A DNA stretch of 64,000 bases, taken from Escherichia coli (lineage in GTDB: Bacteria; Pseudomonadota; Gammaproteobacteria; Enterobacterales; Enterobacteriaceae). The position numbers were made by a program. Of the stretch, positions 1 to 3,000 are shown piece after piece. The stretch's first letter is position 1. The number at the start of each line of letters is the position of its first letter. The stretch lies in NCBI RefSeq assembly GCF_003334765.1, contig NZ_QOWT01000002.1; one strand, 5' to 3'.

Positions 1-3000
1 ACCGGACGACGGGCTCATAACCCAATCCATCCGGGCGGCTGCCACCGCAGGTGTTCTTCTCTGTTTTGTGGAGAAACTAACCGCCCCTACGGGGGCATTT
101 ATGGAAATGTAATTGACTCAATAATCGCCGGACGGTGAGGGCTTCCTTTTACCCGAATTCAGCGCGGTGCAGCGCATATACGTGGAGAACAAAATGTCAT
201 TTATTAAAACTTTTTCCGGGAAGCATTTTTATTATGACAGGATAAATAAAGACGACATCGTTATTAACGATATCGCGGTTTCCCTTTCAAATATCTGTCG
301 CTTTGCAGGACATCTTTCACACTTCTACAGTGTCGCCCAACATGCGGTGCTTTGCAGCCAGCTGGTGCCGCAGGAATTTGCTTTTGAAGCGTTAATGCAT
401 GATGCAACAGAAGCGTATTGCCAGGACATCCCCGCACCACTGAAACGACTTCTTCCTGACTATAAACGGATGGAAGAAAAAATAGACGCCGTAATACGTG
501 AGAAATACGGGTTACCTCCTGTTATGAGCACGCCAGTGAAATATGCCGATCTCATTATGCTGGCAACCGAACGCCGCGATCTCGGGCTTGATGATGGCTC
601 TTTCTGGCCTGTACTGGAAGGTATCCCGGCAACAGAGATGTTCAAAGTGATTCCACAGGCACCGGGCCATGCCTACGGGATGTTTATGGAACGTTTTAAC
701 GAGTTATCGGAGTTACGCAAATGCGCATGAATGTTTTCGAAATGGAAGGGTTTCTTCGTGGGAGATGTGTACCGCGAGATCTGAAAGTAAATGAAACAGA
801 TGCTGAATACCTGGCGCGTAAATTCGATGCGCTTGAAGCTAAATGTGCAGCACAGGAAAACAAAGTAATACCAGTGTCAGCTGAACTGCCACCAGCAAAT
901 GAAAGTGTTTTGTTATTCGATGCTAACGGAGAAGGCTGGCTAATTGGCTGGCGTTCTCTCTGGTACACCTGGGAACAAAAAGAAACCGGAGAATGGCAGT
1001 GGACATTTCAGGTCGGGGACCTTGAAAACGTCAATATCACTCACTGGGCAATAATGCCAAAAGCACCGGAGGCTGGAGCATAATGATCACTTTTACCGAC
1101 AAAGAACTGATTAAAGAAATTAAAGAGCGTATCAGCAGCCTTGACGTGCGAGACGATATTGAGCGCCGTGCTTATGAAATCGCACTCCTATCGCTGGAAG
1201 TAGAACCAGATGAACGCGAAGCTTATGAATTATTCATGGAAAAGCGTTTCGGTGACTTAGTAGATCGTCGGAGAGCAAAAAACGGCGATAACGAATACAT
1301 GGCATGGGATATGACTCTCGGTTGGATCGTCTGGCAGCAACGAGCTGGTATCCATTTTTCAACAATGTCACAGCAAGAGGTGAAATAATGGAGCCATACA
1401 GCCTCACACTCGATGAGGCCTGTTCATATCTGATAGAGCCGCTATATGGCGGTTTATTTTTGCCTGGAGAATTAAGATGACCGATACCAGCCTGATTCCT
1501 GAGAAAGAAGTGATGAACAAGCTCGGTGTTTCATCACGTCAGACAATCTGGAACTATACCAAACGGCACGGATTTCCGAAGCCAGTCAGAACCCACCCCA
1601 AATCATACCTTCGTGAAGCTGTTGAGGGGTGGATTCTTAACGGTGGCGTTAATCAGAAATGCTCCTGATGTGCCAGAACAATTTATCAGCGTGAAGCTCA
1701 TACACTTTGCGCTGAGCCTCTATCCAGTCGTGTTTATTGTATACTGACATTATCCCGCCAAGTTCATGACCGAGCATTCGCTCAGTAACATGAGGCTCGA
1801 CATTCATCTCGGACAGACGTGTAACAAGCGTTCTTCTGAAATCGTGTGTTCGCCAGTAACCTAGATCCATCCCTCCCCTTATTCTATTTACGAATCGGTT
1901 GGCTGCAGCGATGCTGATCGGCTTGCTTATGTCTTCTCCAGGGAAAAGAACATCATTATACGTTGTCATGGCCTTTTCGAGGAAAGGCTTAATTTGTTCG
2001 AAGATTGGACGGCGGATAACATTACCCATCTTGCTATGCTCTTTCGGTACGGTCCATACGTTTTCCAGCAGGTCAAATTCTGTCTTTTTTGCCAGCCTAA
2101 GCTCTGAGAGCCTCGCCCCCCACAGCATAAGCATCTGATGAAGTAGCTTATTTGACGTAGACGCACGGCTTCTTTCAATAGCAAGCCAAATCTTAGCCAG
2201 TTCGTGATACGACAGTACCCGATCCCCTACCTCAGCGCGGGAGCCGAAGTCCCTTGGTTGGATGCTCATAATTGCGCAACTATCTATCAACTGACGCCGC
2301 ATGCACCAACTTATTGCTGATCTTAGTTGACTTAGCACCTGCCTTGCTCGGCGTGGATTATCTCTTTCTTCTTCGGTAAGCAGGTCAACCCATTGCTTAA
2401 CCGTGATAGAAGATGCCGGACGATTAGGAAAGGCGTCATGCATGCGCTTCATAACCGTTGATCGGTAAAGTGCCTGGGTCTTTTCTCTGAGAGTTGTAGA
2501 GACGTAGTTGTCGAACCAGTAGTCGAGACACTGGGCGACCGTCATGGAGTTCTCCACCTTCTCTTCAAAATAAGTGCGTGGATCCGTTCCTGAGAAATAG
2601 AGCTTTCGCAAGTCAGCAGTGATCTGTCTGGCATCCTTCAAAGACAGGGATGGGTATCGACCAAGCCCAAGTCGATTAGGCTTGCCATGCCAGCGATAGC
2701 GGTACTGGAACTGGATGACCCCCTTCGGTGAAATTCGTACGCTGAGGCCATCGGCATCAGCCACTTCTTGTGGGCCCGAATATGGTTTACCATAAATAGT
2801 ACGCAGTTTTGTGTCGCTTATAGCCATAAATAATATTTGGTACGCTCAGAATTAATAGTTTGGTACACATCTGGTACACAATATCACATGGACAACAGCG
2901 CACAGTAAACAACTATATTTGACGTTCGTAGACATACTCAGGTTAAAAAAGGGTTGTTTTTCGAGTTATAACAGACAGTTAATTAACTACAGTGGACAAT

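Follow-up and report, generated by a model that had tools for sequence, protein, structure and literature searches.

In Escherichia coli K-12, the genes yfdQ, yfdR, yfdS and yfdT of the CPS-53 (KpLE1) element were isolated together, as yfdQRST, in a multicopy suppressor of hda-185 (Noguchi and Katayama 2016; PMC4776307). In that work multicopy yfdQ and yfdR together with either yfdS or yfdT formed the minimum set that inhibits initiation at oriC, with yfdQ being required, and their oversupply blocked initiation in wild-type, dnaAcos, seqA, DARS and diaA backgrounds. YfdR, an HD-domain protein with weak 5'-deoxynucleotidase activity, was the sole DnaA binder of the set: the purified protein binds domains I–II of DnaA in a Phe46-dependent manner, competes moderately with DiaA and DnaB, and is inhibitory in vitro (PMC4776307). 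The authors noted homologues in phage SfV (PMC4776307), and the effect has since been cited as an extraneous inhibitor of initiation (PMC12122000). Here we analyse three plus-strand genes near the left end of a 64,000-nucleotide stretch of E. coli chromosome from contig NZ_QOWT01000002.1 (hereafter the window; negative positions lie to its left). They form a yfdR-yfdS-yfdT block that has already been described, is ordinary and very common, and is carried here in a decayed mosaic prophage remnant. The best overall explanation, which we consider probable, is that they are accessory early genes of temperate phages (SfII/SfV-type and lambdoid) that damp host initiation, present here as a remnant.

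The yfdR-yfdS-yfdT block and its relatives

The initial annotation described three coupled plus-strand open reading frames (ORFs) with overlapping stop and start codons, and the ORF list and junction sequences bear this out. The ORFs lie at 167..730, 721..1083 (120 amino acids (aa)) and 1083..1388 (101 aa), and each start overlaps the preceding stop. The longest form of the first ORF opens at GTG 167. Its true start is almost certainly the alternative ATG 194, because this codon has GGAG 7 nt upstream, is the RefSeq start and gives a protein of the same length as K-12 YfdR (178 aa). As read from the sequence, yfdR and yfdS overlap by 10 nt (ATGCGCATGA) and yfdS and yfdT by 1 nt (TAATG); the start codons ATG 721 and ATG 1083 are preceded by GGAG at distances of 8 and 6 nt, respectively. 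A further coupled junction, absent from the initial annotation, follows at the end of the block, where the yfdT stop overlaps ATG 1388 (again TAATG). We take the three ORFs to be conserved coding genes rather than chance ORFs, because the ratios of nonsynonymous to synonymous substitution (dN/dS; Nei–Gojobori) against the K-12 alleles are low (yfdR 0.08, yfdS 0.16 and yfdT 0.10), as under purifying selection, and all three products match PHROG families strongly (E = 1.9e-110, 7.8e-81 and 7.2e-30, respectively).

A resemblance in size and order to the CPS-53 module had also been proposed, and this identification is correct. YfdR, YfdS and YfdT are 98%, 94% and 95% identical to the K-12 MG1655 CPS-53 proteins (BLASTP, full length, ungapped), have the same lengths (178/120/101 aa) and the same gene order, and share the overlaps, with the ATGCGCATGA and TAATG junctions kept between the two blocks. 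At the DNA level, 83..1423 aligns with K-12 as a single colinear 1341-bp high-scoring segment pair of 95.6% identity. Its left edge is directly behind the yfdQ stop, and its right edge is 36 nt inside the ORF that follows yfdT. Judged by this identity, the block is an allele of the known yfdR-yfdS-yfdT (K-12 b2361-b2363). The first 3 kb of the window are 100% identical to many complete genomes, including NZ_AP021935.1, in which RefSeq annotates the matching DNA as yfdR, a hypothetical protein, yfdT, a helix-turn-helix (HTH) regulator and a tyrosine integrase.

The best relatives of the block are in functional Shigella phages: SfII (98.9%), and SfV and SfIV (97.5%). The match to SfII runs continuously from -286 to 1423 at 98.7% identity and includes a structured leader upstream of yfdR. 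The SfII map reads cI - terminator - orf36(-) - orf35 - yfdR - yfdS - yfdT - xis - int - attP - gtrABII, and the window block shares with the three Shigella phages (SfII_34-32; SfV orf30-28) the order orf35 - yfdR - yfdS - yfdT - xis and the lack of yfdQ. By contrast, K-12 has yfdP and yfdQ upstream of yfdR, as does PhiR40_1, with the order cI - yfdP - yfdQ - yfdR - eaE - 'Ea22'. In intact phages the block occupies the distal end of the early-left operon, with xis directly downstream and linked to it by translational coupling. This is also the map position of the lambda exo-xis genes (orf60a, orf63, orf61, ea22 and ea8.5), which occupy the distal early-left region before xis.

The block is common and does not travel as a fixed unit. 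At least 80% of its 1341 bp is present in 1893 of the 5426 complete E. coli genomes, and some part of it in 3262. The matches can be sorted into discrete classes by where the homology stops: after yfdR (query ~621-648), around codon 36 of yfdS (747), after yfdS (989), around codon 39 of yfdT (1118) or 12 codons into xis (1341). The same classes recur among phages, whose third gene frequently encodes another protein, annotated as Ea22 or DUF551. Judged by these classes the block is a frequent combination of units that are exchangeable at the level of genes and half-genes, and the discrete breakpoints therefore argue that there is no obligate trio. An obligate three-component system, whether toxin–antitoxin-like or complex-forming, was accordingly rejected: breaks occur at every gene and half-gene boundary, and a complex-forming trio is countered as well by published pull-downs in which no stable complex of YfdS or YfdT with YfdR was seen (PMC4776307).

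Domain architecture of YfdR, YfdS and YfdT

The product of yfdR (194..730, +) was originally recognized as an HD phosphohydrolase from its motif, and comparison with a known structure agrees. Its metal-binding motif H...HD...D is intact (H50, H69-D70 and D119 in 178-aa numbering), and these residues align with those of the HD protein Atu1052 (PDB 2gz4; E 1.5e-12, residues 19-175). Matches to Pfam are weak (YfbR-like, E 5.3e-5; HD_3, E 8.2e-3). PHROG families 318, 6402 and 8467, annotated as 'deoxyribonucleoside 5' monophosphate phosphatase', match with E down to 1.9e-110, and the RefSeq product name is 5'-deoxynucleotidase. This evidence places YfdR in the HD-domain phosphohydrolase superfamily. 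It shares with YfbR and Atu1052 the HD signature, the YfbR-like Pfam match and the 2gz4 match, but falls well below the cutoff of the YfbR equivalog NCBIfam NF003009 (19.8 bits over a partial match, against 122). The reported nucleotide affinities of YfdR are also much below those of YfbR, and its enzymatic role has been called 'elusive' (PMC4776307, citing Zimmerman 2008). We accordingly assign YfdR, from sequence, to a separate phage-borne HD subfamily (PHROG 318) that is distinct from YfbR. The window protein differs from K-12 YfdR at 4 of 178 residues (R16K, K151N, Q154L and E169D). The description of yfdR as encoding a DnaA-binding protein derives from the K-12 allele, the only one for which binding to DnaA domain I (Phe46) and inhibition of initiation on oversupply are known.

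These properties bear on a reading in which YfdR is a phage deoxynucleoside monophosphate (dNMP) phosphatase, like the pre-early 5'-deoxyribonucleotidase of T5, that disposes of or rebalances deoxynucleotides during phage development, with DnaA binding being incidental and YfdS and YfdT unrelated neighbours. The phosphatase annotation of the PHROG families, the intact motif and the RefSeq name would all fit such a role, as would the fusion of YfdT-core and DUF551 relatives to a dATP/dGTP pyrophosphohydrolase (see below; also PMC10834534). The low affinities and the failed equivalog do not, and the DnaA binding of purified YfdR is specific and F46-dependent (PMC4776307). We consider a purely nucleotide-directed role unlikely.

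The two small proteins were initially said to have no recognizable motifs, which holds for named families in YfdT but not for YfdS. YfdS (721..1083, +; 120 aa, 94% identical to the K-12 protein) has a helical part at its N terminus that is variable (aa ~1-45) and ends in a conserved DUF551 β-domain (aa ~46-118), as seen in its alignment and in a weak yet full-length match to Pfam DUF551 (PF04448; E 4.5e-4, model 3-68/68, residues 50-117); close relatives have precomputed PF04448 matches. A search of NCBIfam with YfdS gave no match. In other prophages the DUF551 subtype of YfdS is joined to a genuine Ead_Ea22 domain (PF13935) or to other N-terminal parts, the PF13935 fusions being found in prophage proteins P0159, P0174 and P0180.

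YfdT (1083..1388, +; 101 aa, 95% identical to the K-12 protein) has no match in Pfam, NCBIfam or the PDB. An exhaustive search of 1.84 billion cluster representatives (clusters at 50% identity) returned 336 matching clusters, and these split the protein into two independently matching pieces. The N-module (aa 1-43) is exchangeable, with aa 1-42 being 83% identical to the N terminus of the 269-aa PhiR40_1 'Ea22' protein. The core (aa ~40-90; window ~1200-1352) is a conserved and unnamed domain of about 50 aa without a Pfam family. It has 16 invariant residues (D43, E44, R45, E49, F51, G57, R64, N67, G68, D69, Y72, A74, W75, D76, W81 and W84), which give the pattern DER..YE.F....G......R..NGD..Y.AWD....W..W, and it is placed variously within proteins of 80-450 aa. 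Among 30 diverse relatives, 9-10 carry the core as a fusion, to DUF551 in five, to Ead_Ea22 in three or four and to a dATP/dGTP pyrophosphohydrolase in one; close relatives of 173-177 aa in prophages have a C-terminal DUF551. Because the YfdT core and DUF551 are fused in single prophage proteins, they may work in one process, a hint of the Rosetta-stone kind.

The profile and structure searches that had been proposed for these two proteins yielded the DUF551 domain in YfdS and no significant structural match. Sequence and profile searches of the PDB with YfdS and YfdT gave nothing credible. AlphaFold2 models, built on alignments of 21 and 22 sequences, are of low confidence (YfdT all-helical, predicted local distance difference test (pLDDT) 64; YfdS a helix and six strands, pLDDT 56), and their best Foldseek matches in the PDB have E values no better than 0.5. 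Scattered matches of the YfdS model to Sm/OB-like small β-barrels are likewise not significant and were not used.

The company that these domains keep raises the possibility that the small proteins are lysis–lysogeny modulators of the lambda exo-xis type, which would adjust the developmental choice or prophage induction in the way reported for Ea22, instead of acting on host replication itself. Their map position is that of lambda ea22, ea8.5 and orf60a-63, between the recombination genes and xis. The same shuffling is seen in the Ead/Ea22-DUF551 mosaic proteins of lambdoid and Stx phages, in which DUF551 and YfdT modules are fused to Ead_Ea22; a published analysis places DUF551, YfdS and Ea22 variants (Ea22_V2) in one mosaic network (PMC10834534). 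The fusion of YfdS-type DUF551 to true Ead_Ea22 N-domains and the shared N terminus of YfdT and PhiR40_1 'Ea22' point the same way. However, neither YfdS nor YfdT has detectable similarity to lambda Ea22 (BLASTP, E 6-10), Pfam Ead_Ea22 does not match YfdS, YfdT or PhiR40_1 'Ea22', and a developmental phenotype of yfdR, yfdS or yfdT is unreported. On this direct comparison membership of YfdS and YfdT in the lambda Ea22 family was rejected, their only link to it being domain co-occurrence in other proteins, and a role as lysis–lysogeny modulators seems to us quite unlikely.

The remnant at sbcB and its surroundings

The block lies in an insert of about 6.6 kb relative to the K-12 dacD-sbcB region, which matches on both sides with a 30-bp overlap. 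The insert is bounded by an imperfect repeat of 30 bp, within which a core of 13 bp, TTTCACGATTACG, is identical. The attR copy of this core (3042..3054, no strand assigned) is inside the 5' end of sbcB (gene 3009..4433) and corresponds to the 13-bp attP annotated in mEp234; attL is to the left of the window at 16350-16397 of L001, the longer coordinate frame in which 19760..19983 equals window -240..-17. The first ~11 codons of sbcB are phage-derived, so that the SbcB N terminus is MTGTDKQPTFLF, where K-12 has MMNDGKQQSTFLF. Stx2c phages, Sf101 and mEp234 are known to use this 'type 2851' site. The insert contains a tail-fibre-assembly gene, tail fragments, a small minus-strand gene, a frameshifted equivalent of orf35, yfdR, yfdS and yfdT, an HTH gene and an integrase, and has lost the cI repressor and early promoter region, the replication genes and most structural genes.

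Homology to both SfII and K-12 stops at 1423, and homology to 2851-type phages begins at 1424/1425. From 1424 the DNA is 98-99% identical to the unit of AlpA-type HTH gene, convergent integrase and attP found in 1717/2851-type Stx2c phages, Sf101 and mEp234. The comparison indicates that the yfdR-yfdS-yfdT block was recombined at 1423/1424 onto this foreign AlpA–integrase–attP unit, and the element is a mosaic remnant, neither CPS-53 nor an intact prophage. Unlike SfII, with its intact xis-int-attP-gtrABII, the window has the block cut 36 nt into xis and the orf35 equivalent frameshifted. What is left of the excisionase gene is a 30-aa ORF (1388..1480, +) whose first 12 codons (MEPYSLTLDEAC) are those of an SfII-type Xis, followed by unrelated sequence; in SfII the Xis sequence is ...MEPYSLTLDEACHFLKISRPTAINW..., with its start codon overlapping the stop of yfdT. 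A truncated xis start also follows yfdT in CPS-53 (K-12 ypdJ), but K-12 differs in its insertion site (argW), in having torI/attR downstream and in having intS at the far end, whereas the window block is at the 5' end of sbcB with an AlpA-type HTH gene and a convergent 'type 2851' integrase as its downstream partner. The element was rejected as CPS-53/KpLE1 on its position between dacD and sbcB, its different integrase and its AlpA-type HTH gene.

Right after the joint, a terminator-like hairpin (1436..1455, +) followed by ATTTTTG was called by a consensus scan only. The AlpA-family HTH gene (1477..1668, +; 63 aa), the excisionase or regulator of the 'type 2851' unit, matches PHROG 66 (excisionase; E 1.9e-8) and has 98-99% DNA identity to genes of mEp234, Sf101 and Stx2c phages that are annotated as AlpA family. 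Convergent with it is the sbcB-targeting tyrosine integrase (1649..2827, -; 392 aa; PHROG 1, E 4e-73), which is 98-99% identical to those of phage 1717, Sf101 and mEp234. In mEp234 the order is N...kil...erf...gp27 - alpA, then the convergent int and attP. The initial annotation placed the block beside the integrase. The two are indeed adjacent, but their adjacency is the product of the recombination joint and the element is not CPS-53.

That adjacency had suggested anti-phage cargo, and a role of the block in defence or superinfection exclusion has to be weighed here. Its support consists of general considerations (defence genes are enriched at prophage ends, and HD hydrolases occur in some defence systems) and of a weak match of the AlpA-like 63-aa neighbour to PADLOC mad1 (E 3.7e-4), a gene that belongs to the other mosaic unit. 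PADLOC-DB 2.0 has no match to YfdR, YfdS or YfdT at E <= 0.1. In intact phages the block is inside the early-left operon, upstream of xis and coupled to it, not in the moron position beyond attP, which in SfII is occupied by gtrABII, and the trio is not passed on as a fixed unit. The cargo proposal therefore did not hold up, and we regard a defence function as very improbable.

Positions 1..100 (+) form the 3' part of the highly structured leader upstream of yfdR, as indicated by an inverted repeat, a hairpin and folding. The repeat has 24-nt arms at -18..5 and 45..68 (83% complementary), and a terminator scan finds a GC hairpin at 82..97. This hairpin is exactly at a mosaic joint (~83-94), the place at which yfdP-yfdQ is inserted in CPS-53 and PhiR40-type phages. 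The 356-nt leader folds much better than its shuffles (z = -6.2). The inverted repeat and hairpin could be an early-left terminator or processing site.

Further side observations concern the DNA left of the block. A match to the small RNA (sRNA) family STnc100, which is related to PasD (bioRxiv 10.64898/2026.05.13.724894), covers window -240..-17 (L001 19760..19983) at 42.3 bits, below the gathering threshold of 47; a similar match is found at the same place in SfII (L004 5686-5901, 39.5 bits), with E ~1e-6 for both loci. The element has its own terminator hairpin (L001 19936-19972) followed by a T-run. It overlaps the coding sequence SfII_35, which has no PHROG match and is annotated here by RefSeq as a frameshifted hypothetical protein, and this region may be an RNA rather than a protein gene. 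Further left in the remnant and outside the window, L001 16900-18500 is 1.6 kb of AT-rich DNA (28-32% GC); it contains hydrophobic ORFs, the longest of 161 aa, that are unannotated and have no PHROG match. It adjoins a short match to the CPS-53 intS-yfdG junction and may represent what is left of an O-antigen-modification gene from a serotype-converting phage.

Elsewhere in the window, the yefM-yoeB toxin–antitoxin pair of K-12 is not annotated between yeeZ and hisL (9378-9804), where the gap is 426 bp compared with 868 bp in K-12. Gathering-level Rfam matches are the STnc240 sRNA (7459-7533, -), the His leader (9830-9953, +), JUMPstart elements at two polysaccharide gene clusters (33670-33708, -, and 44509-44558, -) and an algC RNA motif (59030-59068, -).

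Damping of host initiation as a candidate role

In an intact phage, as we picture it, the early-left transcript would carry the block and xis at its end, and the products of the block would be produced alongside Xis in early development or on induction. YfdR would then occupy the DiaA/DnaB site on DnaA domain I and slow host initiation, perhaps also hydrolysing or draining dNMPs, with YfdS (through DUF551) and the YfdT core acting as interchangeable helpers or adaptors rather than obligate subunits. Restrainers of initiation that act on DnaA provide functional analogies only, with no sequence relationship expected. K-12 YfdR uses Phe46 in domain I, the DiaA/DnaB site; Bacillus subtilis SirA uses the equivalent Phe49, and Dps is a further analogue (PMC4776307). 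Lambda P, also a phage inhibitor of DnaA (PMC4776307), binds domain III instead.

Several observations weigh against this account, and some of them concern the published phenotype itself. Deletion of yfdQRST in K-12 has no replication phenotype, and the authors allowed that the overexpression effect is perhaps an artefact (PMC4776307). Neither YfdS nor YfdT bound YfdR or DnaA stably in their pull-downs (PMC4776307); our structure models of the two are of low confidence and gave no significant fold match, and the adaptor role is put forward as an inference. The initial annotation linked overexpression of the module to inhibition of DnaA-dependent initiation, as has been reported (PMC4776307), but the reported set needs yfdQ. 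Neither yfdQ (DUF2303) nor a remnant of it is present at the locus or in the 64-kb window (tblastn, best E 0.19), and the published phenotype is therefore not simply transferable. A promoter scan likewise found no sigma-70-like promoter upstream of yfdR on the plus strand. Activity of the block in this remnant is doubtful, because the immunity and early-promoter region is gone, no plus-strand promoter is seen and yfdQ is absent. A literature search under generic terms for links between exo-xis genes and replication returned nothing relevant.

Much of this would suit a view of the three genes as functionless passengers, silent relics that have not yet decayed. In keeping with it, the remnant has lost cI and the early promoter along with the replication genes and most of the structural genes, its upstream gene is frameshifted and its xis truncated, no promoter-like site is seen upstream on the plus strand, and the K-12 yfdQRST deletion has no replication phenotype (PMC4776307). 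Against it, the three ORFs are intact and 100% conserved in at least 20 genomes with this arrangement, dN/dS is ~0.1 (though this mostly records history in phage lineages), and a K-12 yfdS deletion was reported to be H2O2-sensitive (Wang et al. 2010; PMC3105296). As a complete explanation we find the passenger view somewhat unlikely, although in this particular remnant the block is probably poorly expressed and mostly a passenger. The damping of host initiation by accessory early genes remains the account that we favour for the phages from which the block derives.

A bolder and, in our estimate, improbable extension is that DUF551 and the YfdT core are portable adaptors that couple phage nucleotide hydrolases to host initiation proteins, with the yfdQ-less block being a self-sufficient 'host replication brake'. 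If this were true, the coupled hydrolases would be the HD dNMPase here and a MazZ-like dATP/dGTP pyrophosphohydrolase elsewhere, the brake would be expressed together with excision, and the apparent yfdQ requirement in the K-12 plasmid experiments would reflect expression context and not a function of the YfdQ protein.

The value of the locus as a discovery is small: its genes are named, are present in K-12 and in roughly one complete E. coli genome in three, and have an incomplete published function. What it adds is that the form of the block found in functional phages (SfII and SfV) has no yfdQ and is coupled to xis, which bears on how the yfdQRST overexpression result is read. The YfdT domain, in turn, is widespread, unnamed and repeatedly fused to other domains, and so offers an entry point to the poorly understood accessory genes of the exo-xis type.

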